This document shows positions 1 to 63,934 of a stretch of DNA of 64,000 nt, one piece after another. The position numbers and the translations under genes are program-made. The notes beneath the pieces were generated by a model. It worked only from the letters and a program-made list of their open reading frames with translations, did not search any database and was not told the origin of the DNA. The DNA is from Bugula neritina. Lineage: Eukaryota; Animalia; Bryozoa. Where the stretch lies: contig OZ037768.1 of assembly GCA_964035545.1 (NCBI GenBank), positions 14,269,675 to 14,333,674 of the forward strand, in the 5' to 3' direction. Position 1 is the first letter of the stretch, and every line of letters begins with the position of its first letter.

Positions 1-336
1 TGAAGAGGTAGTTAAACTCTCACGGCCCGCGAATGTTTCCGCTCACCGCGGGCCGCGGGTGAGAGACTCTTCATCGGGGAACCGTCAGCCGTCCGTACGG
101 ACGCGACGAGCAACCCCGCAAACATTGCAGGTGCCACGCAGGACAGGTCGACCGTACGGTCGGCCTGATACCTTCACTCTGCCACTCCGCAATAGCTTCG
201 GCGGATTGCCAGAACCAAAATCCGAGGGGGACAAGAATCCTCAAGGACCTGTTCACAACTGTTGAAAGTTACGTCAGTCACAGCTCAAAGCGAGAGAGGT
301 GTCTTCTGCAAAGACACAGCGCACTAGGGAGTACGG

Positions 337-3300
337 GTGCAACCCTACGGGGGCATCTACTTCTTATCAAGCAAAGTAGCCGGTAAGGCTGTCACCTTCC
401 TGCTGGATTCAGGGTGTACCACGAGCCTCCTAAGTCGCCAGCTTTTTGACACCCTCAGCGCTAAAGATAAAGCTGAGTTGGGACCATACGACGGGGAAAA
501 TGGCATGTTGGCGAACGGGTCATGTATTCCCTTCTATGGTATAGTTGAATTGACGGGACGTGTCCGGGATCAGGCTATCCAGGAGATGTTCATTGTCAGT
601 CAACTCAAAGAGGATACTATCCTCGGGATGCCGTTCTTGGAGAGCCTCGAATGCCATATCGACTTTAGCAAATCTGCAGTGGTTATGGCTGGGCGTGAGC
701 TCACCTGTGTCGACAAGTTCGGTCGTCCCCTAGTGCGAGGTGTGCAGGTAGTACAGAGCTGTACAATACCTGGCCGCTCTTGCGCCACTATCTACTGCAG
801 GGTGAATAGTAGGCAGATCTCAGGACTAGGAGTGGTGAAAGGCGCGTACGATAGAATCCAACTTGCCAGCAGCTTAAATCAGTTGACTGCACAAGGAGAG
901 ATCATAGTGCAGTGCATCAACCTTTTTACGGAGTCGATGGATCTGCCAGCTGGGTCCTTGGTGGGCCGGTTTCACTTCGTCCAAAAAGGAGATGTGAGGC
1001 CATCGTTGGGCGAGACAACGAATGACCCCTGTCGATCTCAGCAGGGAGGTCAGGGACCGATCCCGGCACACGTCAAGGACTTGTACGAAACAGCCTGTCA
1101 GAGCTGCACGAGCAACGAAGAACGCCTGGCCATGGCGAAGTTGTTGCAGGAGTACAAGGACGTGTTCAGTAGCGGAGACCATGACGTGGGCCTGACACAA
1201 GCTGTCTGTCACGAGATTCCTCTGGCTGCGGGAGCGGTCCCAATCCGGCAACCTACATGTAGGTTGGGACCGAAAAAGGAGAAGGTGGTGAACCGACAAA
1301 TCCGGGATCTTCTGGACCGCGGCCTCATAGAGCCAGCACACAGTGCTTGGAGCTCGCCGGTTGTTTTGGTCCGGAAGAAAGATGAGAGTTGGCGGTTCTG
1401 TGTGGATTACCGCAAGCTCAATAGCGTAACTATACAGGATGCATACTCTCTTCCCCGCATTGATGAGTGTCTGGATGCCCTGGCCGGCAGCAAGTACTTC
1501 AGTTCGTTAAACTTGCTTAGCGGGTACTGGCAGGTTCCCCCTTAGTTCTGATGCTCAGGATAAGGCTGCGTTTATAACGCGGGACGGGCTCTGGAAATGG
1601 AAGGTGTTGCCGTTCGGGTTGACCTCTGCCGCGGTCACTTCTCAAAGACTCATGGAGCAAGTCCTTAGTGGACTCCACTGGAAGACACTGCTCATCTACC
1701 TCGATGACGTCATTATGATCTCCCTAGACTTTGCGACCCATGTCAGCTGTCTGAAGGAGGTTTTCGAATGACTCAGAGGTGCCGGTCTAAAACTGAAACC
1801 CTCCAAGTGCGCTTTGTTACAGCCGGAGGTTAAATCCCTAGGACACGTCGTTGGTCGAAACGGCGTGGCGACGGATCCCGAGAAGGTATGGGCAGTGGAG
1901 AACTAGGGTACTACCGGCAGTACATACCAGACTTTGCGGGGAAAACAAAGCTGTTAAATTGGCTCACCGCAAAGGGGGTTCTTTAACAGTGGACTCCGGT
2001 CAAACAATAGGCATTCGACTGTCTCAAGGGTTGCTTGCTTGAAGCGCCCGTCTTGGCCTACCCCGACCTCGCTTGGGAAAACATCCTGGATACAAACATC
2101 AGGGACCATAATGTCAGTGCTGTGTTGTTGCAGGTCCAAAAGGGCCGAGAAGTAGTAGTAGCCTACTACAGTAAGTCTCTCTCTGCCGCCAAAAAGAATT
2201 ACTGCACTACCCGGAACGAGCTCTTGGCAGTAATCAAAGCGGTGAAACACTTCAGGCCTTATCTTTGCGGCAGAATGTTCCGGCTGTGTACGGACCATGC
2301 CTCATTGATTTGGTTGTGTAAGAGAGCCGAACCTTCCAGCCAGGTCGCACGGTGGCTTGAAATCCTGGCGGAGTATTCCTACCGGATCGAGCATCGACCC
2401 GGGAAGAAACACGGCAATGCAGGCGGGCTGAGCCGGCGACCTGATGGAGGATGCAGACAGTGTCTCAGCATCGACAGGAGAGATGGAGGCCCTTCACGAT
2501 TCGAGTTGGAGACCCTGCCTGGATATAGAGCCGAGTACAGCTGGGAGCACGGTTAGCTGATGACGGCGGCTGGTAAAAATGCGAAGGCTGTACGGACTCT
2601 TCGCGCTAACCCCGTTTTGGCCAGTAACGTCTCTGAGCTGAGGAAACTTCAGGAAACTCTCCCTGGAGTGGTAGCCGATGTATACCGGGCCAAGACGGAA
2701 AGGAGGCGGCCCAGTGAGGAACAGCGGAGGCAGGGATGCTTCAAGTTCTGGCTATTCTGCCAACGCTGGGACTCCCTACAGATCAACGAGAATGGGCTCT
2801 TAACCATCACATTGGCCGCCAACGGCAGACACCCGGTCTGCCCCACTGCTATCCGCCGGGAGTTAATTTGAGACACTCATAAACAAGCTCATGCAGTTGT
2901 CCAGAAGGTGTTTGGCAAATTGTCACTCCGGTGGTACTGGCCAAAGATAGGGGGTGACGTACGGCTTAATTGAGACAGTGTGAGATCTGCCAGGCCAGTA
3001 AGCATGGCCATCTTCCTGGTGAAGCAAGACGGTGAAGGATATATGCTGGCTGGCCCTGGCAAGTGGTAGCTGTCAATCTGGTCGGTCCTATGCCTCCAAC
3101 ACCTCGAGGCAACAGCTGGATCTTGGTGCTCACTGACCACTTTACTAGGTGAGCTGACGCCCTGGCTATCCCAGACGCGTCGGCTCCAACTGTGGCCCAT
3201 GTGCTGGACCAGAATGTATTCTGCTACTTTGGCCTCTGAGCAGACACATTTGGACCAAGGTGCTCAGTTTCAGTCTCAATTGATGAGCGACCTTTGTCGC

Positions 3301-4497
3301 CTCTGGGGGGTGAATCAGAGCAGGACTACTCCTTACCATCCACAAGGCAACAGGGTGGTAGAGCGTAACAACCGCATGTTGGGTAATGCGCTCCGGAGCT
3401 TGCTCCTGGGCTGCGGTCAAGAGGAATAAGTTACGGTGCTCCCGCAGATCATGCGGGTCTACTGCAGCACTTCACACACCAGTACTGATGAAACGCCCGG
3501 GTCCCGGACTCGGGTCCCCGACTACCTCACTAACCATGTTCCTGACCATGATAACTCTGTACACGAGTATGTGGGGGAGTTGGTAGAGTGCATGAGAGCC
3601 GCACACGAAATGCTTCGAGAGAAGCAATGGCAGGTGCGGACTGAGGACTTTGATGAGCCTCCCCTCTAACAGGTAGGGGACTGAGTCTGGATGGCTAACT
3701 ACCGCAGGCGTCGCGGACAAGTGGCTAAGTCACAGCCCAAGTTCGTGGGACCTTACTTAATAGTCGAGGCTATGCCCAATCATACGTACAAGATTGAGTG
3801 CTCAGGACAGGTGTCATTCCAGAATGAGGCTCGCTTGAAACCGTATTGGGCTAGCCCCGATGCGGTAGAAGAAGCGCCCCCGTTGCTTGAGCCCAGGAGG
3901 CAGACAGCAACGCGCGGGCGGCAACGGCACAGACCAGAGTATAAGGTGGTAGTGCCGCGGGACCCGGACCTGGTAAGAGACGAGCGATCACTTCCTCCAC
4001 CCGAAGTGAGTCCGCCGCCTCCTGTTCGAGCCCCAATATCGTCACTTCCGGAACCCAACGCTGGTCTGGAAGTGGGAACCCCGGCAATAGAAGAAGCTTC
4101 CGTTTTAAGAGACGGAGGAGGAAGCAGAGAGGGATCCCCCGCTCCCGCCCCGGCTGCCCCACCCGTGGAACTTGCGAGTCTACCTGTGGAGGCTCCGCTG
4201 TTTTTGAAGAGAAGTCAACGCGCTAGACAACCCCCGCCCTATCTCCAAGACTTTGAGTGTGACTGCGTACAAAACGGCAGATCTATGAGTCAAGCGGTGG
4301 GTGTCGCGGGGGTTGTCATAACTAGCGCGGGAGTTGTACGCTCGAAAGAGAAAGGAACTTTTATGAGGGCGGAGCAGTGGGTGGAATTCATCCCCCAATT
4401 GTGAAGTGCCCCAGTCACGCACGACAAGTTCAGCCTTTTCATATGCTGACACAGTCAAGGGTAGACGGACTAGTAGCTCTCTATAATAATTATCCTC
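337..4497 (+). pseudogene. pol pseudogene of element A (PR-RT-RH-IN)
   Basis: ORF pieces 337-1545, 2035-2556, 2560-2871, 3199-3429, 3436-3669 and 3691-4404 align colinearly with the intact Pol of element C; multiple stops and frameshifts. Confidence 0.93.
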
Positions 4498-4508
4498 AAA
4501 CATTGAGT

Positions 4509-5640
4509 ATGTCTTTGAATACCAAGTTACGAGGTAAGTCCACACAGACCTAGTATTCCTAGCTATAAAAACGGGTCTATCATCAGTTAACTCTGGCTTA
4601 GTTGATTCAACTGAGTTAAAGTTGCTGGTAACTATGTCAACTGTGAACGACGACGAAAGTGTAGTGATGTCTGACGATTTTCTTGATTTTGAGCTGGATG
4701 CTATGGTTCTCAGTCAATCTACACGTTTGCCTTCAGTCTCCCGAGTGCCTTACAAAAGAGTTCGTGACTCTCAGGCTATGAACAGCCGATTTTCACAAGA
4801 ATTATGTTGTAAAGATCCGAGTCGATCTAACAATAATTCTGCTCTTTTAGAAGCCACTCGATCTCCGCTACCTGATGGCATGCCACCAATGAAGATAGCT
4901 TGGAACGAGGGCCTCCTTCCGGAACGGTCACTCGCTCCTGTTACCAGTAGACGACTACCACCTGCTCTCAGAGCCAAATCTTGTTGGACCTCGTCACGCA
5001 CGAAGCAAACTGTTTTGAAGGCTCGAGGAGACATTGACAACACCATGTGCTGCCTCTGTCAGCAGCATTTTACTACTCCCCAGAGGCTGCGAGCTCACAT
5101 GCCGCAGCACTTCATCACCACCTTCTGCCCATGCGGGGAGTATAGCTACCACCGGGATTATATCCTGCGACATCAAAGAACCATGAACTGTTTTATAGGA
5201 CACCTATTCGGGGTAGACCAGCCTTCTTATTCCCAGTTTCTGGATCTGATCAAACCCTTCGTACAGGATCCGAGCCGGTTGGAACGATTGTTGCAGGGGT
5301 TTCCAGCTCTTCGGGCTATTACTCAGGGCCCGACTCCTAAACCCCCATGCTATAAGAAGCAAAAATCTCGGTCCTACCTCAATCGCTGGCAGTTTTCCCG
5401 GGTAGTGTTACAGCGGGTGTACACTAACCCCGTCTCTGACGAACATATCCGGCGTTCTCTCTCCAGATTCCGTCCTCTCCAGCTCGCAGCGGAAAAGACG
5501 CAGAAGCTCCCCTTCTCCACTCTGCGCACCTTCTACAGCCAGGAGTATACGTGAAGTAGAGGACCGTATATCTTCCTTAGAAGGCAAGTTGCAGAGGCTC
5601 ACTCCCCAAGTCTTGGCTGCGACCAGCAAACTGCAGTTAC
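4509..5640 (+). CDS. Spliced accessory ORF3 of element A: C2H2 zinc finger + basic patch + coiled coil (frameshifted near 5460)
   Basis: Exon 1 4509-4533 (MSLNTKLR+G); intron 4534-4850 (GTAAGT...CTAAC...TTTTAG); exon 2 in frame; finger CCLCQQHFTTPQRLRAHMPQH, then FCPCG...RHQRTMNC; +1-frame tail RKRRRS...IREVEDRISSLEGKLQRL. Confidence 0.75.
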
Positions 5641-5957
5641 TTACCCCCATGTATATCTGTGTGACATTTGTCTCTCTCATACATGTCTGTTACGTATATC
5701 TGTGTGGTATCATCCCCTTTCGTGACATGTCTCCTGTGTATATGTCTGTGTGATACTTGTTCTTTCCATGGCAGTTGCTATATTATACTGCGTTTCTTGA
5801 CTTTTGTTAATATTCATTCGATATATTATTATTATATTAGTTGTGTATGTACATGCACTTTTTTTCATTCTTTATTTTATACATTTATTACAATTTTATA
5901 CACTTCCTCCCCATTTCTGAATTTATCAGAAAGTGGGCTTCCTGCTGGAGGGGGTGG

Positions 5958-6329
5958 TGTAATGGTTGTCGGAAAAAGGAGTCCTCCTGACCCCTGCTGA
6001 ACATTGGTCTAGATATATTATAGTTCTGCTAGTTGTGACGTTTGCCCCTAGTCTTCCCGTTTTGCATACGGCAGACAGCGTGGACTGGTATATAATACTG
6101 TGAAGCTGTTCTCCAATCAGCGTAGACTAAAGCACCTGACCTAACCTTTATAAACAGTACCTTCCGGAGTGCACAGTAGAGCTGGCTAGACTAGTAACTA
6201 GATAGTTAACCTTCGTATTCTTGTGCCCTTGTCTTTTGATCAACTAATGTGAAGCTTTTCTTAATTATATCTTGCTTATAAAATATATATACTTCCTCAC
6301 GTTCCTGATCATTGGTTTGGTTGATTACA
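5958..6329 (+). repeat. 3' LTR of element A (372 bp)
   Basis: Starts TGTAAT immediately after the G-rich PPT and ends ATTACA (6-bp inverted termini). Confidence 0.8.
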
Positions 6330-6351
6330 TAACCTCCATGTGATGCAGTAA

Positions 6352-8162: not shown

Positions 8163-8515
8163 TGTAGTGAGTAGTGCAAAGTACAAATACGGGAATCGCC
8201 CTCTCTCTACTCTTGGAATACTAAGACCCTTATGTAGCAACCAATTAGCAGCTCCGGAAGATATGCTTCCGATTCCCGTGACACTTCCCGGGTTATTAAC
8301 ATTATATCACGTTGTTGTAAGCGGAGGCTTGAAGTAGTAACATGTGTTAGTAGTTGACTGATGTATAGGATAATTTGATGTGATGTTTGTTTTATGCTTT
8401 ATTGTGGATAATAAATATAATTACTCGACAGCTACCCTAGTAATTACTAGCAGAATAACCAACTAACTATACGCAAGTAGATAACTCACGCTCAGTAATT
8501 GCACAAATTACTACA
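8163..8515 (+). repeat. 5' LTR of element B
   Basis: Direct repeat of 13521-13873. Confidence 0.97.
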
Positions 8516-8516
8516 G

Positions 8517-8534
8517 TGGTGGCAGCGGTGGGAT
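8517..8534 (+). promoter_or_regulatory. Primer binding site, tRNA-Leu
   Basis: TGGTGGCAGCGGTGGGAT is the reverse complement of the 3' end of eukaryotic tRNA-Leu(AAG/TAG) (ATCCCACCGCTGCCA-CCA). Confidence 0.92.
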
Positions 8535-8550
8535 CTTGCGTATAGCAGTC

Positions 8551-9501
8551 ATGGCAGAAGACGGCACGGAGCTACCCATTCCACTGAATGAAGGTGAGAG
8601 AGATAATGTTGATATATCTGTGGAACCAGTGGTGTTAGATGAAGAAGTGAGAATTCCTAGAGAGCATGGTGAAGACAGATACCGGCTGAAAGCGCCCACC
8701 TTCACAGGCGAAGAAGCAGTGGAGCAGTTTATCCAAGAATTCCAAGATGTGATGGAGATTGCACAGTGGCCACCAACGGTGGCGTTGCTCAAGCTCAGGA
8801 TGGCGCTGACGGACAAGGCTAAGCCGTATGGAGCGGGACCTGACATAGACGGAATCTTTGCTTCTCTGCGGGCCCGCTTTGGCATCTCCCCCATAGATGC
8901 GCGGGCCCGTCTACAAAGGATGCGGCGTGATCCTCACACGTCGCTACAAGAGCACGCTGCCACGGTGTACCCACTAGCGCAGATCGCGTTCCGCGATCTG
9001 CCTCCAGTACACCGTGAGAGGTATACTTATGATGCCTTCGTGCAGTCCATCAACGACTTGGGGCTCCACCATCAATTCCAAGCGAGGGGAGTCACCACGG
9101 TCGAAGATGCACTTGCGGTGGGAGAAGCCTACCTCATGGCGACTCATATGCACCGCAACCGCGTGGCCTCCCGCCAGGTGACCACGGAGCACATTACTGC
9201 TCATGCCGAACCAAACGCGGAACCCTCCGCGGTGGCTAATGTGAACCAGATGTCACTAGCGTCAAAAGTCGCACAGATGACTGACATGCTAGATAAACTG
9301 GTCGCCACATTAGCTCCCCCAAGCCAGGTAGATACTGCCCGTGAGCCTTGCGGGCCGCAGGTACAATCACCAGGCATGGGGCACAACTTCTGCTGGGGAT
9401 GCGGAAGGCCAGGACATTTCCAGAGGAACTGCCCTCAACTCCCACAAGGGTTAAACTACCACGGCCCGCAGATGTTCCCACCTCCTGCGGGCCGTCTGTA
9501 A
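8551..9501 (+). CDS. gag: Gag of element B
   Basis: Intact ORF with capsid-like KAPTFTGEEAVEQFI segment and CCHC knuckle CWGCGRPGHFQRNC. Confidence 0.9.
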   Translation: MAEDGTELPIPLNEGERDNVDISVEPVVLDEEVRIPREHGEDRYRLKAPTFTGEEAVEQFIQEFQDVMEIAQWPPTVALLKLRMALTDKAKPYGAGPDIDGIFASLRARFGISPIDARARLQRMRRDPHTSLQEHAATVYPLAQIAFRDLPPVHRERYTYDAFVQSINDLGLHHQFQARGVTTVEDALAVGEAYLMATHMHRNRVASRQVTTEHITAHAEPNAEPSAVANVNQMSLASKVAQMTDMLDKLVATLAPPSQVDTAREPCGPQVQSPGMGHNFCWGCGRPGHFQRNCPQLPQGLNYHGPQMFPPPAGRL

Positions 9502-12141
9502 ATCACCCAGGGAGGCCCGCGCGTCTGTCGCCCCGCTGGGCGCCGCGCGGAGATGCTGTGAAGTGGCGACCCCCGCGGCAAGTAGGCTCAAGCCACTCGC
9601 CGCCTGGGTCCTCTACGCCACTCCAACACCAACACGGAGCCGGCAGACGGTTGACCTCAGAGCCTGCGAGGGAAACGGTACAGGCGCCACAAGGCGTACC
9701 GCCCCAACCTCGGCAGCTGGTCAATAGTCGTCACCAACCGTGGACCCCTCGACCCACAGCGAGGGAGGTGCAACCACGGCACACACAGCTGCAGCCACAC
9801 GGAAGTAGCTACTTCCTGCCAGGAAAGCTAGCCGGCAAGCCTGCCAACTTCCTCCTGGACTCAGGCTGCACCACCAACCTCCTTAGCCGTCAATTCTTTG
9901 ACACCCTCAGCGCTAAGGTCAAGGACGGGTTGGCACCGTATGAGGGGGATCATGGCACCCTGGCAGACGGGTCGTGCATTCCCTTCTACGGCATTATTGA
10001 GCTAACTGGTTACGTCCGTAACCAGGCCATCCAAGAGACGTTTATCGTCGGGCAGCTCAACGAGGATGCTATCCTCGGGATGCCATTCTTACAACGACAC
10101 GGATGTCGCATCGATTTCAGTAAATCTGCGATGATCATGGGCGACAGGGAGCTCGCTTGTGTCGATAAGTTTGGTCGTCCTCTAGCGGGAGCAGTGCAGG
10201 TAGTACGAAGCTGTACTATACCAGGCCACTCCCGGGCTACCGTCCGCTGCAAGGTAGACGGTGGCCAAACCTCTAAGTTGGGAGTTGTCGAAAGTACGCA
10301 CTCGAGAGTCCAACTTGCCCATAGCTTTAGCCGGCTTACGGGACAAGGAGAGATCTCAGTGCAGTGTGTCAACCCCTCCTCAGAGACAGTAGACCTACCA
10401 CCCAGATCCATGCTGGGCCGCTTCCATCCTGTCCAGGAGGAAGCCATTGGGCCGTCGTCGGGAGCTACGACGGAAGGTCCTCAGCAGAGCCCGTCTCAAG
10501 GGCGGAGGACCGTCCCAACCCACGCCTCCCATCCTCCAGGGACGCGTGGCTGCACAGGCAACGGAAAGCGCCAGGCTATGGCTAGGTTGCCACATGGGTA
10601 CAGTGAGGCGTTCCGCCACACAGACCACGACGCCCGCCTAAATAGAGCAGGCTGTCGTGAGGTACCACGGGCGGCGAAGACCGCCCCTGCTCAGCCACTC
10701 TAACAGAGGGCTGACACGCCCCCGGAGGCTGTCCAGAGCCTCCGCGCCAAACCTGTATAGGCTGGTAACGTTAGGGAGCTGCCGAAGCTCCAGGAAAGCC
10801 TTCCTGGGGTGGTAGCCGACGTGTACCGAGCGAAACAGGAAGGGCGACGACCCAGTAGTAAACAACGGCGACAGGGATGCGCCGAGTTACGGCTGTACTG
10901 TCAACGTTGGAGCTCTTTGCGGGTCGGGCCAGATGGTCTGCTGACCATGACCTTGGCCGCCAACAGCAGACAGCCAGCCAGGAAGAGGGCTGTCTGCCCA
11001 GTTGCCATCTGCCGGAAGTTGATACAAGACACCCACGAGGAGACTCACGGAGGAGTCCAAGAGGTGGTCACCAAGCTACAACTCCGGTGGTACTGGCCCA
11101 ACATGGAGCGGGATATCCGGCGCAGAGTTTGACGGTGCAAAGTTTGCCAGACCAACAAGCATAGCCGTCTCCCTGGTGAAGCGGGGCGGCAGACGCATTG
11201 TGCGAGAAGGTCTTGGCAAGCGGAGACTGTCGTCCTGGCCGGAAACACCTCCATGACACGTCAGGAAGACTTGGCGAGGCGAGAAAGGCCACTTCCGTCC
11301 TTGAAAGTGTGCCCACCGCCCCCAACGTCAAGCCTGCCATCACCACCACTTCCGGAACCGGAAACGGGTCCAGAAGTGCAAAAACCCCCCGTGGGAGGGG
11401 CTCCGCAAGGAGATACCGACGTAGGAACAACCGTCACAAACAGGCTGGAAAAATCACCCGTGAGACATAACAGTCCACGGGTGAGCACACCGCCTCCCAC
11501 AGTGACGACGCCTCCAGGACCACACACTAGGCAACTTCCAGCGTGTCTCAGAGACTGTGTACGTGACCGCGGTATAAGCCTAGGGCCACACGGTGCGTAT
11601 TTTCGCATGCGAAAATTAAAATCACAAGTAGCAAAGGTGTCCACTGTAGCGTCAGTGATGCGTGATAAATAAAGCTTTCATTTTTAAATCGCACTCGCTT
11701 TCAATAAAACGCAATTTGCTGGAATATAGCACTAAATAAAGAAATTGGGCTCGCTGAATAACTACCAGCCAATTAGGTGACGACGACAGAGACGGTTCGC
11801 ACTTGCGTTGAAAATGCAGAGCGACAAGTGCGAATGTTTTCTCAACGCGCACAGTGGACACCTTTGCTACTCGCGATTTCAATTTTCGCATGCGAAAATA
11901 CGCACCGTGTGGCCCTAAGCTAAGCGGCAGTAACGAAAGTCTAGAGAGGCCTCGCATGGGAAAACAGGCAAAGAAACGTGGGAGTTGTGAACACCACGGA
12001 AATCTCAACTTTTGCCTCGGCGGAATCTCACACGAGATTCATCCGCTGGAAGTGAAAAGCCCTAGTCACGTTTCACAACCACGCTGTTCGGTCTTTTCCT
12101 ACGTTGATGCAGTCAAGAGTAGACGTGCCACTAAACAGTAA
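9450..12141 (+). pseudogene. Deleted pol of element B (protease intact; IN zinc-binding fragment and C-terminal tail only)
   Basis: The -1-frame ORF to 10703 contains LLDSG. Near 10700 the sequence jumps from the pre-RT region (AQPL, cf. VRQPT) to the post-RNase H linker; near 11225 it jumps from the IN HHCC region to the IN tail. Confidence 0.88.
11578..11920. mobile_element. MITE, 343 bp (copy 2, opposite orientation) inserted in element B
   Basis: Same TIRs as 6352-6694; flanked by TAA; removing it restores colinearity with the Pol tail of element C (D-x-x-x-SG). Confidence 0.9.
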
Positions 12142-12164
12142 TCATTTACCGCTCTCATTCCAAA

Positions 12165-13222
12165 ATGTCTTACTATTCTGGATCGAAGGGTGAGTTAATT
12201 ATGTTTTTGGTACGATAACTAGACTGCATCAGTCAGCTTTAGCTACACTAGCTAGCGAGCTGGAGATTCGATAATGATAAACAGTGGTGGGAATACACGT
12301 CGACTTTGATTTTAAATAATCTGCCATAGCGAGTGTGTTCTCCATCAACTATTCATTAGCCTGAATCTCACGAGTGTAACTGAACAGAGTACCGGTCAGG
12401 CTGTACACGCCGACGGTACCTCAGTGTATAACCTTTAACACTGCTACTCTTTCAGATCACACTCGAGTGACCACCTCCCGGTCACGGGACCAGCCAACCT
12501 CTCTGCCTATGGAAGAGGAACCTGTAATGGAGAATGGCATACCCGTGGTGCTCCGTCGACGACACCGCTGGGTGTCACCCACGACGGAAAGGAGAATTGA
12601 GGAAGCCTGGGGACCCAGTGGACCCCACCGAACCTGCCAGGTCTGCTTTGAGGAGTGCCCGTCACACCGCTCCCTGCGTCTACATGTAGACGCCCATTTT
12701 CTACTCCACTTCTGCCCATGCGGGTTCCACGACGTATACCCGTATCCCGTGACAGTCCATAAGCTGAGCTGTTTCGCCGGAGAGAACCATACTGTCGATG
12801 AGGACAGTTTCCCCCAATACCTGGATATCATCAAGCCAGTCATCAGGAAGGCTATCACCCTGGCCGCACTAGCGTCAGGGTTCCAAGTACTGCTGTTATC
12901 CGCCCGCCATAAGTCCCCTATGGTTTAGGGCCTGTCTCCTACCCCCGTCAACCCTAGCAACACCCCCGAAGTAGAAGAAACAACAATACCCCCTCTAACA
13001 GAGACTACTACAACCCCGCCAAGGCCTAGCCAGCTGGCTAATGTAGAAGAGCGGCTTGTAAGACTACAAGCCGAGTTCACACAACTTGCCCCTGACTTGC
13101 TGGATACGACGACAGGTCTATACCAGTTAAAGGACTCAGTGGGGCGACTGAAGAGGCGGCTACGTGCCCGACAGGCTCGACACAGAGCACGATCGCTACA
13201 AGAGTCAGAGTCCACCCAATGA
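12165..13222 (+). CDS. Spliced accessory ORF3 of element B: zinc finger + coiled coil (one in-frame TAG at 12926-12928)
   Basis: Exon 1 12165-12189 (MSYYSGSK+G); intron 12190-12455 (GTGAGT...TTTAAC...CTCTTTCAG); exon 2 in frame; CQVCFEECPSHRSLRLHVDAH, FCPCG; tail LANVEERLVRLQAEFTQLAP...LYQLKDSVGRLKRRLR. Confidence 0.75.
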
Positions 13223-13520
13223 GTATGCCTGGGGTAGGCACCTTCGTTGAGCTGTAACTCGTCTGGAAAGTGACGAGTGCTCCGACATTGGCCCGCGTGC
13301 TGGTAAGCACCCTCTCTCTTTATAGCTGACTAGATGTGTGTGTTCGATCACCCTGTTGTCTTCTGTATGTAAATGTTGTCGTACTCAACTATTTCTCTTC
13401 TTACTCTTTGTGGGTTTACTTATGTATGTTTTTCTTTTTGGATTATTGTATAGTTTTTCATTATGTGTTTTTTTTATTGTGTTATCAGAAAGTAGGGCTT
13501 TCTGCTGGGGGGGGGGGCGG

Positions 13521-13873
13521 TGTAGTGAGTAGTGCAAAGTACAAATACGGGAATCGCCCTCTCTCTACTCTTGGAATACTAAGACCCTTATGTAGCAACC
13601 AATTAGCAGCTCCGGAAGATATGCTTCCGATTCACGTGACACTTCCCGGGTTATTAACATTATATCACGTTGTTGTAAGCGGAGGCTTGAAGTAGTAACA
13701 TGTGTTAGTAGTTGACTGATGTATAGGATAATTTGATGTGATGTTTGTTTTATGCTTTATTGTGGATAATAAATATAATTACTCGACAGCTACCCTAGTA
13801 ATTACTAGCAGAATAACCAACTAACTATACGCAAGTAGATAACTCACGCTCAGTAATTGCACAAATTACTACA
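13521..13873 (+). repeat. 3' LTR of element B
   Basis: Follows the G-rich PPT 13507-13520; repeat of 8163-8515. Confidence 0.97.
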
Positions 13874-22049: not shown

Positions 22050-22990
22050 ATATCTAACCAAGATAGTTTTTATTTTGTGAACAATATCAGGCTGGTGTTG
22101 AATCTGATGTTCTATTTTGTATATAAATGTATAATATTATATGTTTCATTATTATTATCATTATTATTATTGTGAGGGTTCCTGCCATTCTAATCTTCAT
22201 ACTAAACCCTATTACATTGCCAATCACAATGTCTATTATACTTTCATGCTCAAGTTGAGAGACTTAAATTAAGCATATTTTATTATCGGTTTTGTGTTAC
22301 TTGTTTATGTGTCTCACTTGACAGTTACATTGTAATTTGTAATAAAATTATAGTCAATGAATCACCAGTGAAATAATCTTCTGTTGGACATGACAATATA
22401 TGGTATCTGCGATTGATGGTGTTGTACTATTTAAAGCTACTTTGGGTGGTCCTAAAACTGGTCAAGTGAATATTCACATACCTAGTCAATAGGTCTGTGG
22501 GTATTCTTAGGTGCAGGCACTGTCAAAACCACCAACAGTGCTTAGTACAATTGCATGGTCCCTCCCTACTTCATTTGGTAGATGGCAGTTGGCTTATGAA
22601 ACGTTTGTCTGCACGCAACGATGGTACTGGATTGCTTGGTAGCAGTAGCAGGTGGATAAACCTGACAGCTGACTATACTTGAAAGACCAAGTGTAAGGCA
22701 GCATTGACTAGTAGTTTTACTTTGTTTATTAAGTTTACTTCATCACATTGAATTCTGTTTACTTACAAAAAGTTGGGTTAAGAATCCATAACAGAATGAC
22801 CGTTCAATCATTCAGACAGAAACCTACTCCACCTTGCTGTCAAAACTTCATGAATTACTTCCGACAAGTACGATATAAAGTAAACTTGGTATTTGCTTAA
22901 AGTCTGGGGCAAAATGGTTGATTTGAGTTCATATTTGTGAGATATTGTCTTAAGATACTTTTAAAACTAGAAATTGTCAACTAAACATAT

Positions 22991-23292
22991 TATGTTTTCC
23001 AGAATTAGGGTAGATGTGCAACCAAGAGAGTCTGCTTACTACTAGAGAGACTTCACCGTGATAAGTCGAGTAGATGTTGTTATATTTCGATACAAGAATA
23101 CATAATAATAAAGTTATACAACAGTTAAAAATACACGCATCTATTTAGTTTACTACACTATCTTCAACTGGGCTAGTAGCGCGAAGCTACTACTATTACT
23201 CATGAGCAGCCTAGCTAATTGGTTAATACATTGTTCCGGGTCAATACGCAACCTTGCGTATTGTGTTACTGGTAGCTCCACGAGCCACCACA
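22991..23292 (-). repeat. 3' LTR of element C
   Basis: Direct repeat of 30657-30958; PPT adjacent at 23293-23303. Confidence 0.95.
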
Positions 23293-23560
23293 CTGCCCCC
23301 TCCAGCAGAAAGCCCTCTTTCTGATAAAATATAATTCACATAAAAAAACGTATACTTCGTTGGGCTGAGAGAGGACAATATAAAAGTATATACAAAAACC
23401 AACTGATTAGATATACAAGTATATATATAAAAAAAATATGCACAATATGTAATATGTAAAAGAAAGTCCTATTTACATGTAGAGTACGTGCCACCATAAC
23501 GGTAGGGAATGCCACAGAGAGGTAGGGGAAGAGTAGTATGGAGTTGGAGATAGACTCATG

Positions 23561-24689
23561 TCAATCGTGGGCCGCCCGCTTCATGCGTTTAATAGACTCC
23601 TGTAGATACTTGAGTTCACTGGATGCAGCATGCACACGCGGGGCCAGTCTATACACTTCATGCACTAGTTCGTTTGCCCTAGCTTCTACTTCACGTAAGT
23701 TGCGGGCCAGACGGGACGACGAGAGAAAGTCTGCTGTCTGTGCCTTTTTCGTTCTGAAGACGGAAGTGGAGGAGGGAGTGTATACGCCTTCGTGTCTACC
23801 CTCTGTAGTACGACACGGGGAAGTGTATGCGGTTGGCGTAGAGGACTGTGAGGTGGAGAGTTAGTTGATTTTGTAGGCTTATCCATGATTTCAGAGATGA
23901 TGGGTCGAGGGGAGGGAAAGCCTTGTTCCAGGCGAGACAGCCGAGCTGGGTCGGTGATGAGGGGTCTGATGGCGTTGAGGAATGCGGGATATGATGATTC
24001 GTCTACTTCGTAGACGTGTCCTTGAAAGCACTGCATAGTGTGTTGGTGACGCAGTAGATAATCACGATTGTAACTATATTCTCCGCAGGGGCAGAACGTG
24101 GTGATGTAATGCTGCGGCAAGTGTACTTTCAGCCTGCGGTGGGTTGTAAACCGCTGCTGACATAGGTGACATTCGCGGTTACTGTCACCTCCTCTACGAG
24201 TCTTAATCTCTTTCTCCTTGGCAGGGGTAATCCAGTTAGAGGTTGCTTCCAACTGGGGTGGCAGTTGTCTGGTTGTGGAAGTTGTTGGGGCCGGCTCTGG
24301 GTCCCACGCCATCTCTAGAGAAGGCATGCCCGGAGAGACGGGCGCGAGTGTGTCTACAAAAGTAGAATTATTGTTAGATCGCGGTGGATCTTTACAACAT
24401 AATTCTAGTGACTGTCGACTGTTACTAGCCTGAGAGTCACAACTTTTGGAATGCACTCGAGGAACCAGTGAATCATGTGTGGACTGACCAAGAACAGTGT
24501 CTAGCTCCAGGTCTAACAGACCGTCGGCCATTACAGTGTCCTCATCGTCATTCACATGAAACGTGGTTCCCAGTAATTCTGATTCAATCTGATGAATTAG
24601 TTCAGAATTTACTGGCATCGAGCCCGTTTCCATGAATAGGAATACAAGACTTATACTGGCTTACCTGTGAACTCGGTATTAATGTCCAT
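23561..24689 (-). CDS. Spliced accessory ORF3 of element C: zinc finger + basic patch + coiled coil (frameshift near 23720)
   Basis: Exon 1 24689-24665 (MDINTEFT+G); intron 24664-24354 (GTAAGC...CTAAC...TTTTGTAG); exon 2 in frame; CHLCQQRFTTHRRLKVHLPQH, FCPCG...RHQHTMQC; tail LREVEARANELVHEVYRLAPRVHAASSELKYLQESIKRMKR. Confidence 0.78.
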
Positions 24690-27600
24690 ACTCAACGTTC
24701 TTGGTAAGATTGGAGCTGGTTGTGAGATACGTCTGCCTTTGGCGATGTCAGCGTAAGAAAGGGCTGAGCATCGTTTCTGAGGCACGAGGTCGGAACTATT
24801 TGCTTTACGCGCATTAATTCCTCCCACTATTCCGCCCTCGCAAAAGTTGATATTTGCGTGGGGTTCACAACTCCAACATTTTATCGTACGGTTTTCCCCT
24901 AGACTTTCATGCCTGCCGCTTTTAATGCAGTCACATACGAAGTCTTTTAAATATGGTGGGGGTTTCCTCGTACGTTGTCCCCGTTCTAGGGGGGGCGACA
25001 CGCTTTCTGGTTTATTAGTAGGGGCCTCTAGTGGCGTCTCTACTTCACCGTTAGCGGTCACTTCTTCTTGTTCTCCGGATGGAGCCCCTCCCTCCGTGGG
25101 GGTTTGCACTTCCGGAACCGGCTCGGTTTCTGGAAGTGGTGGAGTTAGACTTGGCGGCGGCGGGCATGCTTCTGTTGGTAGAAGCTGTCTTTCTTCTCTC
25201 ACCAAGTTTTCTTCCCGCGGTATGACCACTTCATATTCAGGTCCATAGCGCCGTCGCCCGCGCGTTGTCTGCCTCCTGGGCTCCAACAACGGGGGGCTTC
25301 TCCTACTGCGTCGGGGCTAGCCCAATACGGCTTCAAGCGAGACTCATTCTGGATAGACACCTGTCCTGAGCGCTCAATTTTGTACGTATGGTTGGGCATA
25401 GCCTCGACGATCACGTAGGGTCCCACGAACTTAGGCTTTAATTTGTCAGCCTGCCCGCGACGCCTACGGTAATTGACCATCCACACCTTATCTCCGGTTT
25501 GATAGAGAGGTGGTTCCTCGGAATCTTCGTGCCGCACCTTCCACTGCTGTTCGCGCAGTATATCGTGTGCGGCCTTCATCCGTTCCACTAGTTCACTGGC
25601 ATACTCGTGAACCGAGTTGTCTTGCTCTGGAACGTGGTAGGTAAGATGGTCAGGGACACGAGTCTCTCTCCCAAGCATCAAGAGGTTTGGGGTCTCACCA
25701 GTACTGGTGTGTGGGGTGCTACGGTATGCACGCATGACTTGCGGCAACACCGTATCCCATTCCTCTTGGCTGCGTCCAAGGAGGAGACTCCGGAGCGCAT
25801 CACCTAACATCCGGTTGTTGCGCTCCACCACCCCATTACCTTGTGGGTGATAAGGGGTGGTCCTGCTCTGATTTACTCCCCAGAGGTGGCAAAGGTCGCT
25901 CATCAGTTGAGACTGGAATTGAGCGCCTTGATCAGAGTGTATCTGCTCGGGGAGCCCGAAATAACAAAATACGTGTTGGTCTAGCACCCTGGCCACTGTC
26001 GGGGCTGACGCATCTGGGATGGCCAGAGCATCCGCCCACCTAGTAAAGTGGTCGGTTAATACTAATATCCAACTATTGCCTCTGGGGGTCAGGGGCATGG
26101 GTCCGACCAGGTCTACAGCGACTACTTGCCAGGGCCTTCCAGCATATAGCCTCCGCCGTCCCGCTTCGCCAGGGGGACGGCTATGCTTACTGGCCTGGCA
26201 GATCTCACACTGTTTGACTCTGAGTCGGACGTCACGCTCCATTTGTGGCCAATACCACCGGAGTCGTAATTTGGAGATCACTCTCTTGACCCCTGCGTGG
26301 GCCTGTTTGTGAGCATCCCAAATCAACTCATGGCGGATGGCCGTGGGGCAGACTACCCTCTTCCTCTCTGGGTGTCTGCCGTTGGCGGCTAGAGAGATGG
26401 TTAGTAAACCATCCTGCCCGATCCGCAGCGAGTCCCAACGCTGACAGTATAGCCGGAACTTGGCGCATCCCTGTCTTATGCGTTCCTCGCTGGGTCGTCG
26501 CCCTTCCTTTTTGGCCCGATATATGTCTGCCACGACTCCAGGCAGCTCTCCTTGGAGCTTCTTCAGCTGTCGGACATTATCGGCCAGTACAGGGTTGGCG
26601 CGGAGGTTTTGTACAACCTCCGGGAACTCGTCAACCTCCTGTCTGAGTTGACCTTGGTCCCAGTCAAACGGTGCTCCGTGATGAGCCAGCGTCTCCAACT
26701 CGCATCGCGGGGGACCTCCATCCCTCCTCTCGATGTTGAGACACTGTTTGCAACCTCCATCAGGTCGGCGGCTCAAACCATCCGCATTGCTGTGTCTCTT
26801 GCCCGGTCGGTGTTCGATCCGATATGAGAATTCAGCTAGGATTTCGAGCCACCGGGCGACCTGACTAGAGGGCTCTGCTCTCTTGCACAACCAAATCAGC
26901 GAGGCGTGATCCGTACGCAGCCGGAACTTCCTGCCGTACAAGTATGGTCTGAAGTGCTTCACTGACTTGATTACTGCCAGCAACTCTTTGCGGGTAGTGC
27001 AGTAATTTCGTTCAGCGGGTGAGAGAGACTTGCTGTAGTAGGCTACTACTACCTCTCGGCCTTCCTGCACTTGTGACAGCACAGCGCCAACATTTTGGTC
27101 ACTGGCGTCAGTGTCGAGGATGTACTCCAGAGTGGGGTCTGGGTAGGCCAAGATGGGCGCCGTTAGTAGGCAGCCCTTGAGGCGGTCGAACGCTCCTTGT
27201 TCGACTGGGGTCCACTGCCACGTCACTCCCTTTGCGGTGAGCCGGTTTAACGGCTGTGCTATGCCCGCAAAGTCTGGTATGTATTGCCTGTAATACCCTA
27301 CCAGCCCCAAGAAAGCCCGGAGTCCGGTCAAGTCTTGGGGGGTGACCCAGTCTTCTATTGCCCGTACCTTCTCGGGATCCGTTGCCACGCCGTTTCGACC
27401 GACAACGTGCCCCAGGTACTTAACCTCTGGCTGCAATAGAGCGCACTTGGAAGGTTTGAGCTTAAGACCGGCACCTCGGAGTCTCTCAAAGACCTCCTGC
27501 AGACGACTGACATGCGTCTCGAAGTCTGGGGAGATCACGATGACATCATCGAGGTAGACCAGCAGTGTCTTCCAATGGAGCCCGCTAAGGACTTGCTCCA

Positions 27601-28921
27601 TCAGCCTCTGGAAGGTGGCCGGGGCGGAGGTTAACCCGAAGGGTAGCACCTTCCACTTCCACAACCCGTCCCGTGTGATAAACGCCGCTTTCTCCTGGGC
27701 GTCGGGACTCAGAGGGACTTGCCAATAGCCGCTCAGCAGGTCTAACGTACTGAAGTACTTGCTGCCGGCTAGGGCGTCCAATGACTCGTCAATACGAGGT
27801 AGAGGGTAGGCGTCCTGTATGGTTACGTTGTTGAGTTTGCGGTAATCCACACAGAACCGCCAACTGCCGTCTTTCTTCCGGACCAGTACGACCGGTGAGC
27901 TCCACGCGCTATGGGCGGGCTCTATGAGGCCGCGGTCCAGAAGATCCCGTACTTGTCGGCTAACCTCCTTCTCTTTCTCCGGCCCCAGCCTGCGTGTGGG
28001 CTGCCGGACAGGGACTGTCCCTGCAGTCAGCGGTATTTCGTGTCTGACAACTCCAGTCAGCCCCACGTCATGATCTCCGCTACTGAAAACATTACCGTAG
28101 TCGCGTAGCAACTTCGCCATAGCTTGGCGTTCCTTGTTGCTCGCGCAGCCGCCACAGGCTGTTTCATATAACTCCCGGAGATGTGTTGGGACTGCCCCTC
28201 GCCCCTGAATAGGGTGTCGAGGGGGTGCCTCCGTCGCGTCACCCAGCGACGGGCCCACGTCCTCTTCCTGGACGGAGTGGAACCGGCCCAGCATTGACCC
28301 AGCTGGGAGCTCAATGGGCTCGGTAAAGGGGTTGACACACTGCACTAAGACCTCCCCTCGCTCAGTTAGTCGGTTTAAACTACTGGCGAGTTGGATCCTT
28401 TCGTGCGCGCCTTCAACGACCCCGAGCCTGGCTATCCGGTTGCTGTTCACTCGGCAGTGGATAGTAGCTCTGGAGCGTCCGGGCACGGTGCAGTTTCGAA
28501 CTACCTGAACACCGCCCGCCAGAGGACGCCCAAACTTATCCACACAGGCGAGTTCTCGCCCGCCCATCAGCACCACCGACTTGCTAAAATCTATTCGGCA
28601 CTGGTGTTGCTTCAAGAAGGGCATTCCGAGGATAGCATCTTCCTCCAGTTGGCTTATGACAAAGGTCTCCTGTACAGCCTGGTCTCGGACACGCCCAGGG
28701 AGCTCGATAATACCGTAAAAGGGAATACATGACCCGTCTGCCAGGGTGCCATGTTCCCCCGTATACGGTCGTACTCTATCCCTGTCCCGGCGGGGCAGTG
28801 CCTCAAAGACTCTACGACTGAGAAGGTTGGTAGTACAACCAGAGTCGAGCAGGAAAGTGACGGCGTTGCCGGCCACCTTTCCGGGTAGGAAATAGCTCTC
28901 TCCATGTGGTTGTATTTTCAC
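24651..28921 (-). CDS. pol: Pol polyprotein of element C (PR-RT-RH-IN with GPY/F module)
   Basis: ORF 28921-25199 with LLDSG, YLDD, DASD, HHCC, VDLVGP/HSDQG/VERNNR and KFVGPY. One C missing in a homopolymer near 25293 shifts the tail into ORF 25289-24651. The gag-pol linker also appears to carry indels. Confidence 0.95.
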
Positions 28922-29194
28922 CCCCCCGCATGTGCTGTCCTAGATTGGTAGGACGGCGAGGGTTTCACCCGTGGTTTACGGGGTTTCCGGCGGCGAGGTT
29001 GGTGCCGGCGGGGTTTGGGGCTCTCCACTGAGCCTTCTGGCTCCATTTCAGTGGCGGGCTCCTCTTCCCGAGGTAACCGGTGGAACCGGTTGGCGAGTGG
29101 CAGGGAGAAGGTACTCGGCCGTTGTGCGGGCCTACTAGTCCTGCGTGGTACCTGCCACTCGGGGGAGTGTTCCGTCGTGTCCCACCATACTCCT

Positions 29195-30620
29195 TCAGTT
29201 GCGGCCCGCGGGGAGGGAGAGCGTCCGCGGGCCGTGACAGTTTAACGCCCCCTGGTATTGGGGTCGTCCTTGCTGTCTATGGTCTTGACCAGCACTACTC
29301 CAGCCTGGCCCCACAGGTGTTGGGGGCAACCGCAGGGCCTGACCGGGGCCAGCGCCGGCCAGAATTGTTACCAGCTGTCCCAGCATCTCTACCATACGGT
29401 CCACTTCGGCTTCCAGCGGGGGGGCTTCGGGGCCTGTTGTAGCCCTGGCAGCGCTGACTCCAACTACTGGTGGGTTCCGTTGTGCTCGATGCATTTGGGT
29501 AGCCAACAGGTAAGCTTCTCCAGCCTTTAGGGCATCCTCTATCCTGGTTATCCCTTTTGCTCGGAGCTGATGGTGTAGGCCCAGGTCGTTGAGTGTCACA
29601 AAACTGTTGGTAGCAGTGTGACGAGTTCGAAAAGTCTGGTAGTCAGAAGTGTATAGACAAGTAGCATACAGCTTGCTAATCCAGTTGTGAGTAAATAGAG
29701 TTGTGAATATAAGTAGACTTTATTTCTCTATAGTAAGATATGCACAGATGGATTTATAAAAATGAACTCCGAGAATGAACTTATAAAAAGGAACTGATTC
29801 GTAAACCCAACTGCCTCAGTATTTATAGTAAACAAAACACTCTAGAACATTCTCAAGCATTCCAGTATAGAAGATTCTAGTAGAAAACATTCCTCACATG
29901 CCAATACTATTTATAGAAAATCAAAACAAAACAAAACATCGGAATTTCCATGGTTATTTCGCAATTATTGCGCAATACCTTGTTTACATTGCTGGGCAGT
30001 AGTTAACATGACTAACGAAAACAGTAACAATGAACAATGACCCATCTCTTTGATTAGTCTAGAATATTTATGAACATTCCTGTATAATCATTAGGAAAAA
30101 CCCGGTAAGTCTATTTATAGGTATATGTCCACTCAGAATTTGTGACATTGAGTGACTGGACAAAGGCGTCGTATGTGTAACGCTCTTGGTGTTGTGCGGG
30201 CAGATCGCCGTACGCAATCTGTGCCAGCTTCTTCACCATCGCGGCATGTTCTTGCAGCGAGGTCCGCGGGGCGCGGCACAACCTCTGTAGCTTGGTCCTA
30301 GCATCTATTGCGGAGATGCCAAAACGGGCCCGCAGCGCAGCCAGTATTCCGTTTACGTCCGTTCCCACTTCGTACGGCTTTGCTTGCTCCGTCAACGCCC
30401 TCCGCAATTGGATAAGGGCCACTCTATGCGGCCATTGAGCAATCTCCATTACTTCTCTAAATTCTTGTATAAACTGTTCGACATCTTCTGACCCAGTAAA
30501 GGTGGGAGCTTTCAAGCAATATCTATAAGCTTCTTCTCCCTCACGATTCACAGGATTAACATCATTTCTACGCTCACCTTCTACTGGGGGTGGTTGCATT
30601 CTAGCATTTTCAGTCTCCAT
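29195..30620 (-). pseudogene. gag: Gag of element C, interrupted by a solo LTR
   Basis: ORFs 30620-30111 and 29599-29195 join as FVQSLN-DLGLHHQ once the insertion is removed; homologous to Gag of element B. Confidence 0.9.
29594..30147 (-). mobile_element. Solo LTR (554 bp) nested in gag of element C
   Basis: TGTCACAAA...TTTGTGACA termini; 5-bp TSD TTGAG (29589-29593, 30148-30152); TATAAATA (~29824) and AATAAA (~29721) on the minus strand. Confidence 0.88.
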
Positions 30621-30634
30621 CTTTGATGTGCACT

Positions 30635-30652
30635 ATCCCACCGCTGCCACCA
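30635..30652 (-). promoter_or_regulatory. Primer binding site, tRNA-Leu
   Basis: Identical 18-mer to the PBS of element B, 1 nt from the LTR. Confidence 0.92.
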
Positions 30653-30653
30653 C

Positions 30654-30958
30654 TGTTATGTTTTCCAGAATTAGGGTAGATGTGCAACCAAGAGAGTCTG
30701 CTTACTACTAGAGAGACTTCACCGTGATAAGTCGAGTAGATGTTGTTATATTTCGATACAAGAATACATAATAATAAAGTTATACAACAGTTAAAAATAC
30801 ACGCATCTATTTAGTTTACTACACTATCTTCAACTGGGCTAGTAGCGCGAAGCTACTACTATTACTCATGAGCAGCCTAGCTAATTGGTTAATACATTGT
30901 TCCGGGTCAATACGCAACCTTGCGTATTGTGTTGCTGGTAGCTCCACGAGCCACCACA
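30654..30958 (-). repeat. 5' LTR of element C (305 bp)
   Basis: TGTGGT...ATAACA on the minus strand; repeat of 22991-23292. Confidence 0.96.
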
Positions 30959-34450: not shown

Positions 34451-34879
34451 ACCTAGACCTAAACCATGTACATTATACAACAATGAACTGTTATTATTTT
34501 TAGATGTATAACCAATGAACTCAATAATATTCTTTTCCAGCTCAGTGTGTATAACAGGGCGGCAAGCATAAATCACTAAAATACTACCTTTATGTGGTGT
34601 GGGTCAAATAAATTTAAGCTAGACTTGGGACTTTGGATACAGCGGAAGAACTTTCTCCAATTTTCGCTTTTTCACTACACAATGAAAATTGCGAGCTAAA
34701 ACTCTAGGGCCTAGATAATAAATTAAAATTGGAAATCTGAAGATCAACTCGATCAATTCGGAGTATTTGGTTTGGTTTATGCCTTAGAGTTTTGGTGCAG
34801 GGAGTTATTAAACACGCAAGATAGTTTTATTCGTAAGTATAGCATCACTCTTACTCCTAGTATAAATTGATAATCGTTC

Positions 34880-50915: not shown

Positions 50916-63934
<13,019 letters not shown>

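Follow-up and report, generated by a model that had tools for sequence, protein, structure and literature searches.

A likely spliced zinc-finger accessory gene in a Gypsy lineage of LTR retrotransposons from Bugula neritina

We analyzed a 64,000-nt stretch of the genome of the bryozoan Bugula neritina (assembly GCA_964035545.1, contig OZ037768.1, forward-strand positions 14,269,675 to 14,333,674), referred to here as the window, whose numbering is used throughout. The window carries three LTR retrotransposons, A, B, and C (Table 1), each with an additional reading frame, ORF3, located 3' of pol. By structure all three elements belong to Ty3/Gypsy. LTRs are paired in B and C, a primer binding site, which we take to be of the tRNA-Leu type, directly follows the 5' LTR, and a polypurine tract (PPT) and target duplication are present, the 4-bp duplication being clear in B. 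Pfam analysis of element C pol identified Asp protease (residues 19-111), RVT_1 (353-512), RNase H (576-704), integrase (865-1032), and a Tf2-like SH3 module (1149-1189), the PR-RT-RH-IN order of Ty3/Gypsy elements (Metaviridae). In Gmr1 the integrase precedes RT, and this order was not seen in the pol of element C. As initially annotated, the LTRs are unrelated, with no blastn match of the LTRs of A, B, and C to one another. The pol regions are 74% identical at the DNA level between A and C and 68-74% identical between B and either A or C; the elements are thus akin and do not represent three independent cases.

All three elements are defective copies. The pol of A contains several breaks, and its 3' LTR starts at about 5958. 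Element B is non-autonomous, having an internal pol deletion and a MITE inside its pol tail; when C pol was compared with element B by tblastn, the alignment jumped from residue 312 to 765, indicating that the middle of pol is absent from B. In element C a foreign insert splits gag and a frame break is found late in pol. The LTR pairs of B and of C are each 99.7% identical.

Table 1. Features of the three Gypsy elements, in window coordinates
Feature	Position	Strand	Basis or remarks
Element A, Gypsy/Ty3	1..6350	+	Truncated at window start; gag and 5' LTR outside window
A post-pol Met exon (8 codons + G) and putative donor	4509..4533	+	Sequence, donor ranking
A 'intron', 317 nt	4534..4850	+	ORF3 frame open, acidic segment, 3'-terminal branch point and acceptor
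A ORF3 exon 2: finger domain, basic patch, coil; broken	4851..5753	+	Finger frame stop 5552-5554
Element B, Gypsy/Ty3 LTR element	8163..13873	+	LTRs 8163-8515, 13521-13873
B gag leader exon (14 codons + G), putative	8551..8593	+	Phase-1 donor AAG/GTGAGA, top of 340 donors
B post-pol Met exon and putative donor	12165..12189	+	Sequence, donor ranking
B intron, 266 nt, non-coding	12190..12455	+	6-7 stops per forward frame
B ORF3 exon 2: finger domain, coil	12456..13222	+	Premature stop 12926-12928
Element C, Gypsy/Ty3 LTR element	22990..30958	-	LTRs about 30958-30654, 23292-22990
C Pro/Ser linker, basic patch, coil; broken	23561..23895	-	Finger frame stop 23688-23686; coil 23701-23561 in another frame
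C two-finger domain	23896..24303	-	Predicted single compact fold, pLDDT 93.7, pTM 0.84
C 'intron', 311 nt	24354..24664	-	ORF3 frame open, internal ATG at 24633, acidic segment, branch point, acceptor
C post-pol Met exon and putative donor	24665..24689	-	In frame with pol tail ORF 25316-24651
C gag leader exon (14 codons + G), putative	30578..30620	-	Phase-1 donor AAG/GTGAGC, second of 460 donors

Additional features were found within and around the elements. The MITE is 350 nt in length, with terminal inverted repeats of ~70 nt and TAA/TTA-like flanks, and is present in two copies that are 94% identical and in opposite orientation (6349-6698, at or in the A 3' LTR, and 11575-11921, in the B pol tail). 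Despite the unrelated LTRs, a 25-nt motif just 5' of the PPT is common to A (5925-5957), B (13485-13520), and C (23330-23293) and is possibly a cis-acting signal. The insert within C gag is AT-rich, about 550 nt long, and located at about 29595-30145; a contig of a DNA run (X2) skips 29581-30154, so copies without the insert exist. In all three elements pol extends about 230 residues beyond the SH3-like module of the integrase (C 25316-24651, A 3790-4490, B 11130-12155). This pol tail contains a Pro/Glu-rich stretch, an R-x-R-x-P-P-x-Y-L motif, a short Cys/His patch, and an S-Y-A/V-D-x-V/A-K motif in which the third-position changes are silent; the C tail had no match in Pfam. The CpG observed/expected ratio is 0.7-0.9 in the measured parts of B and C versus 0.35 in the host gene region (40000-64000). 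Within that region, exons at 41413-42521 (+) encode CCCH fingers and a zinc knuckle and presumably derive from a CPSF4/CPSF30 gene, and an exon at 51507-51833 (-), with a weak SAC3/GANP match under the cut-off (E 1.5e-5), is assumed to be LENG8-like. An ORF at 48677-49276 (+) without a Pfam match resembles an exon of an amidated neuropeptide precursor, in that dibasic sites enclose a short peptide with the C-terminus R-Y-G-K-R. A large inverted repeat (52998-54239), with arms of ~470 nt and 90% identity around an AT microsatellite, is probably a foldback-type DNA element. Low-complexity arrays of the TAG/TAT type and a 25-nt tandem repeat occupy 34860-35270, 15364-15500, and 44287-44386.

ORF3 had been described as encoding two zinc fingers, a linker, and a C-terminal coiled coil. 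Finger 1, the second site, and the coil are all present, but in no window copy do they lie in one open frame; in A, for instance, the coil is in a different frame from the finger. Finger 1 has the spacing C-x2-C-x12-H-x3-H and the second site C-x-C-x12-H-x5-C/H, and conserved residues (W, I, V-D, F) flank the fingers in the domain of C. Among 101 aligned rows, conservation is at least 90% for C45, C48, H61, H65, C71, C73, G74, H86, V100, and D101, and above 80% for W24, I33, and C92. Three positions of the finger 1 helix carry R or K in 83, at least 60, and 82 of the 101 rows, and five of six proteins counted have a finger domain without net positive charge. A natural full-length homologue was modeled with confidence in the finger domain and in a 49-residue C-terminal helix; residues 23-102 are disordered, the acidic N-terminus being predicted as disordered with one helix and the linker, with its basic patch, as disordered. 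As modeled, the anatomy of ORF3 is that of a transcription factor, comprising an acidic disordered segment, fingers, a basic patch, and a coil.

The finger domain matches known families poorly. Neither P0001, P0004, nor A ORF3 reached the Pfam zf-C2H2 cut-offs (11.6-16.1 bits against 25-27), and matches to PF00096 and PF13894 at E<=0.01 were obtained for 9 and 7 of 127 members. Finger 1 has weak matches to the DNA-binding C2H2 proteins HIC2 (E 6e-6) and SALL3 (5e-5), and solved structures are matched in sequence only weakly, for the most part over finger 1 or the coil. Foldseek returned no match at E<=0.001 for the full model against PDB and a viral library or for the domain against PDB. The Atlas returned generic C2H2 clusters (best 0.90, 135 shared features) with recognition under threshold, and these serve as a lead only. 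The statement that ORF3 is not env held up: the maximum 19-residue hydropathy of five homologues is 0.65-1.43, which indicates that there is no transmembrane segment, and no env family appeared in the Pfam scans.

We identified 54 A/C-type and 97 B-type homologues of ORF3, and a profile search gave 270 representatives at E<=0.001. Finger and coil lie in one frame in 22 of the 54 A/C-type and 54 of the 97 B-type homologues (76 of 151 overall), many of the others being fragments or broken. Among 10 distant clusters, the four that carry an organism name all come from Watersipora subatra or Bugula neritina. Searches for related loci in metagenome contigs confirmed 0 of 30 and 0 of 221 pattern matches, and those in viral contigs 0 of 13. 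Between A and C, dN/dS is 0.13 in the finger domain and 0.23 in the exon-2 linker, compared with 0.06-0.13 in pol, and the ORF3 architecture is preserved over subfamilies that are only about 30% identical. Judged by these codon comparisons, which the initial annotation had put forward as a check, ORF3 is under purifying selection.

The segment between the post-pol Met exon and exon 2 had been annotated as an intron of 266-317 nt with YTAAC and YAG signals. The sizes and signals were recovered in A, B, and C, but the segment is truly non-coding only in B. In A and C the ORF3 frame has no stops beyond the TAA of the donor itself over 104 and 102 codons, a result obtained in 20 (A) and 15 (C) of 10,000 shuffles. 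Just two indels, 3 nt each, separate the A and C segments in alignment, and their dN/dS of about 0.3 (0.33 overall, 0.26 excluding splice signals) is accompanied by a pN/pS of 0.46 in the ORF3 frame versus 0.57-1.13 in the other five frames. Values as low occurred in 3 of 1000 column shuffles; since such shuffles already yield a pN/pS of 0.74, Fisher p values for constraint on the segment overstate the signal. The homologues were found by a search that favors open frames. A fixed Met start lies exactly 86 residues ahead of the acceptor motif in 24 of the 54 A/C homologues; it corresponds to the ATG at 24633 in C, a Met that A lacks. The first 50 residues of these 24 proteins have 9-14 more acidic than basic residues, and the 86-residue segment has a mean identity of 73%, versus 78% in the finger. 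Among 27 X2 variants in the C 'intron' frame, 10 are silent, 15 change a residue, and 2 create stops, whereas five of six in exon 2 are silent, indicating weaker constraint in the 'intron'. Taken at the sequence level, these data indicate that the A/C 'intron' encodes protein and that the segment is non-coding only in the B type. B-type proteins lack the acidic N-terminal segment; just 7 of the 97 extend over 100 residues ahead of the second finger, and these have no common start. The more distant relatives P0184, P0204, P0227, and P0247 keep the L-L-D-x-D and V-P-Y-K motifs of the segment (with one change in P0204 and P0227), so the segment predates the A/C split.

The post-pol Met exons lie where they had been placed initially. 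They are 25 nt long and consist of eight codons including the ATG, plus G, rather than of an ATG and eight further codons. The donors are GTAAGT in A, GTGAGT in B, and GTAAGC in C. The pattern ATG-N21-G/GTRAG has exactly three matches on both strands of the 64 kb, all at these sites, against an expectation of 0.035-0.065 matches per shuffled element for a pattern that was defined post hoc. When scored with a generic matrix, the post-pol donor ranked 1 of 394 GT sites in A, 2 of 340 in B, and 1 of 460 in C, and the ORF3 acceptor ranked joint 1 of 209 YAG sites in A, 2 of 198 in B, and 1 of 271 in C. The arrangement thus exceeds what chance would give. The flanking motif of the acceptor is present in 41 of the 54 A/C homologues, and in all 41 the pair of residues spanning the acceptor has L, S, V, or I in first place and D, E, or A in second; the residues vary yet are always compatible with YAG at the protein level. 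For the B type, a pattern that demanded D or G in the second position gave 33 matches, of which 30 have S-D or L-D as the pair. It is likely, from this conservation, that the ORF3 acceptor is real.

Use of the post-pol donor is a separate question. Six further homologues run from the post-pol exon straight into the acidic segment. Five of the six have a Met eight residues before the donor site; the site reads G-K in three and D-K in three, and the D makes a GT donor impossible there. Strong donors are retained in A, B, and C, where the post-pol Met does not read into ORF3, and the donor is common to B and A/C although silent sites are saturated. From these comparisons, the post-pol Met is old and conserved, with the donor dispensable where the Met already reads into ORF3. 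No protein with the 8-residue leader joined to exon 2 was found among 303 proteins screened. In the very thin RNA run X1, three short contigs fell on a 611-nt stretch, all in exon 2, leaving the 'intron' uncovered; in these data neither the gag splice nor the post-pol splice was bridged by any read or contig. No joint lacking the small 'intron' was found among 256 X2 contigs (15 of 104 joints on the 7.7-kb stretch were among those listed, and the narrow 611-nt stretch gave none). Pol ends before the post-pol ATG in A and B, and an internal promoter for this ATG was not found, a TATA-like word occurring upstream in A only. An internal promoter would nevertheless be the simplest means of ribosome access to the post-pol ATG, with re-initiation after pol or a further acceptor as alternatives. 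A CAG at 12112 in the B pol tail, found at the same place in A, was considered as such an acceptor and rejected, being absent there in C.

A different donor accounts for the only joined form found. In both B and C, gag codon 14 is followed by a phase-1 GAAG/GTGAG donor located in codon 15, a site missing from the initial splice-site inventory. In the homologue P0079 the 14 N-terminal residues match those of the P0375 gag (14/14), and the beginning of ORF3 exon 2 follows without a gap; the protein nests within the B type in the domain tree and is the sole gag/ORF3-joined form among the 303 proteins screened. As a called gene on a contig, P0079 should mirror contiguous sequence, whether of a spliced RNA or of DNA copied from such an RNA. 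There is a small possibility that the join arose by deletion at a shared AG, but the sequence of the join points to env-like splicing. Conservation of the gag site was examined in 37 of 120 listed gag heads that passed a filter and that differ in sequence and length; E-G-E/K is found within residues 9-22 in 27 of the 37, compared to a mean of 1.0 and a maximum of 5 in shuffles. We infer that the B gag leader is the first exon of a spliced ORF3 message and that the same splice would operate in the other elements. The expression route first proposed, through the 8-codon exon and small intron, was not borne out in that the sole joined form uses the gag donor.

By these sequence comparisons, ORF3 is an accessory gene conserved in this Gypsy lineage and likely expressed by splicing. 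In the model that we propose, transcripts from the LTR would be spliced from the phase-1 donor at gag codon 15 to the ORF3 acceptor, removing gag-pol as in an env message and giving a product in which 14 gag residues precede the finger domain, linker, basic patch, and coil. A second entry would lie just 3' of pol, at the Met exon and its donor, and would be reached most simply through an internal promoter in the pol tail. RNAs from such a promoter would have no primer site, so they would not be reverse-copied and no intron would be lost; this would also account for the lack of a DNA copy without the segment in the X2 contigs. In the A/C type, retention of the 311-317 nt segment would add ~95 mostly disordered acidic residues, making a long isoform; the gag splice, and perhaps the post-pol splice as well, would yield the short form. 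The fingers may bind the LTR or internal promoter and the coil may oligomerize the protein; the acidic long form would then activate and the short form would activate less or dampen, so that a feedback set by splicing would tune the amount of genomic RNA. In this model, ORF3 would be nuclear, bind DNA, and activate transcription. We give an even chance to the view that ORF3 is a nuclear DNA-binding regulator of the element's own transcription. Of the role as a nuclear regulator originally suggested, what stands is a selected non-env accessory gene with fingers, a coil, and a probably real acceptor, the regulatory role itself being plausible.

Alternative explanations bear on both the expression and the function of ORF3. 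The post-pol Met exon and donor may be unused, ORF3 being made only through the gag donor and as an unspliced long form, with the small 'intron' a look-alike. The lack of a joined form with the 8-residue leader, the D at the donor site of half the read-through homologues, and the lack of a segment-lacking copy in X2 are all consistent with this. We consider it somewhat unlikely given that in A, B, and C alike the donor is one of the two top-ranked sites and is shared by B and A/C despite saturated silent sites, that the Met is kept at its distance in most of the further homologues, and that the families lacking the donor are those whose Met already reads into ORF3. As to function, ORF3 could act as a Rev/CERV-like factor that binds unspliced element RNA and aids its nuclear exit or escape from splicing, the protein message then arising by default splicing from the gag donor. 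The gene logic does match that of Cer1 CERV, with a spliced message, a gag-shared N-terminus, a zinc-binding loop, an NLS, and a coil (PMC10309623), and each element's strongest splice sites are those that genomic RNA must avoid. Hydrophobic residues with export-signal-like spacing occur in the segment encoded by the 'intron' in 16 of 24 A/C proteins and in four of four more distant ones checked; this pattern is informative to a limited degree, as it is also matched by 33% of shuffled segments and by only 3 of 48 B-type N-termini, and was discarded as a discriminator as too frequent by chance. The C4-type loop and G-protein-like domain of CERV were not seen in ORF3, and finger 1 resembles DNA-binding C2H2 fingers. 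We regard this role as unlikely, although it is the leading alternative to the transcriptional regulator.

ORF3 might instead be an integration-targeting or anti-silencing factor that binds chromatin or shields the element, possibly fused to the integrase in some families. In C, P0228, and P0263 the Met exon shares its reading frame with the pol tail, P0291 and P0215 have a pol-tail motif in frame with the finger, and the finger domain is present in annotated host genes too. Yet an in-frame arrangement in three of nine cases is close to the one-in-three chance level, with three of the nine inferred from the called start only, so a conserved Pol-ORF3 fusion was rejected; pol stops ahead of the ATG in A and B, and no full fusion was found in the best 150 of 270 profile matches. 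We hold this explanation to be quite improbable. The idea that ORF3 is a captured host gene fragment carried as passive cargo would fit with the existence of related annotated host genes and with the broken state of all three window copies in spite of the nearly identical LTRs of B and C. It is very improbable, being largely refuted by the selection signal in the finger domain; the architecture is also kept across divergent subfamilies, half of the homologues are unbroken between finger and coil, and B and C are broken in pol or gag as well, as expected of generally defective copies. A more far-reaching version of the regulator model can be offered only tentatively, and we think it improbable as a whole: this bryozoan Gypsy lineage would have independently evolved a switch in the style of complex retroviruses, with two promoters and a coding retained intron that toggles between an acidic activator and a short LTR repressor, and the finger domain would have been domesticated several times as host genes.

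Five proteins, P0326 and P0264 (Watersipora subatra RefSeq), P0327 and P0328 (Bugula neritina, adjacent locus tags), and P0210, contain one or two copies of the finger domain, several of them with a C-terminal coil. They are scattered among the pol-remnant proteins P0291 and P0301 in the domain tree, a quick tree in which 25 of 61 inner branches are open and which gives no direction of transfer between element and host. From their sequences they are candidate domesticated genes.

The common view of LTR retrotransposons is that of simple elements with gag, pol, and at times env. In the literature examined, Cer1 CERV is the only spliced non-env accessory protein of an LTR retrotransposon with a tested function; the lineage described here would be a second, unrelated case, with hundreds of natural variants and an unnamed finger domain predicted to be well folded. 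Families with a coding intron (A/C) and without one (B), and with or without the second donor, provide a natural comparison for two questions: what balance a retrotransposon strikes between its spliced and its genomic RNA, and whether retroviruses are the only setting in which transactivators arose. The annotated genes of Watersipora and Bugula that share the domain may represent an unrecognized transposon-derived gene family. LTR repeats are reported to be a major component of bryozoan genomes and a poorly annotated one (PMC13326412).

Spliced accessory genes in Gypsy elements are of a known kind, and we found no precedent for this particular protein. In our search of the open literature, no listed title or abstract described this protein or architecture, and no paper on bryozoan Gypsy LTR retrotransposons or on a Gypsy ORF3 with C2H2 fingers was returned; PMC8556966 and PMC11952523 gave us nothing specific. 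With respect to classical C2H2 fingers (PF00096, PF13894), finger 1 is similar in its spacing and weak profile matches, but the second site differs and both sites lie in one 120-residue domain without a significant PDB fold match. The extra ORFs of LTR elements in bdelloid rotifers, plants, and Botrytis likewise are family-specific, lie between pol and the 3' LTR, and have for some been suggested to be regulatory; the ones on record there are env-like, GDSL-/DEDDy-like, or antisense, and the word 'zinc' does not occur in the main texts (PMC5408684, PMC7264820). The env gene of the Drosophila gypsy errantivirus is, like ORF3, a third ORF after pol, and is expressed there from a spliced subgenomic RNA without gag-pol, but it encodes a glycoprotein with a signal peptide and transmembrane segment (PMC4276936). 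ORF3 has neither of these and has zinc fingers instead.

Cer1 CERV, from the C. elegans LTR retrotransposon, is described as a nuclear protein of 517 aa encoded by five exons; exons 1-3 are read in frame with gag, and the protein has a C4 loop in addition to its H, M, and G domains (PMC10309623). ORF3 resembles it as an accessory protein from a likely spliced message with a gag-shared N-terminus (in P0079 only), a zinc-binding motif, a basic NLS-like patch, and a coil, and in the splice sites retained in genomic RNA; neither the ORF3 model nor the fold search revealed the H, M, G-protein-like, or C4-loop features, and ORF3 is set apart from CERV as described by its location 3' of pol and its two-finger C2H2-type unit without a G-like domain. 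Our searches brought up no link between the two in sequence or fold. The regulated splicing deduced earlier from the presence of an intron remains a valid conclusion, though one that applies to retroelements with spliced messages in general; among Gypsy elements, Cer1 CERV is a precedent (PMC10309623). Foamy virus differs from the lineage described here in being a retrovirus, and no relation in sequence or fold was found; an internal promoter for ORF3 is our supposition. In foamy virus, the unspliced tas is an activator and the spliced bet a suppressor, both expressed through an internal promoter, which shows that a switch of this type can work (PMC13220597). Like ORF3, tas and bet lie in a 3' accessory region, and an unspliced activator paired with a spliced suppressor is the model that we propose for ORF3 (PMC13220597).
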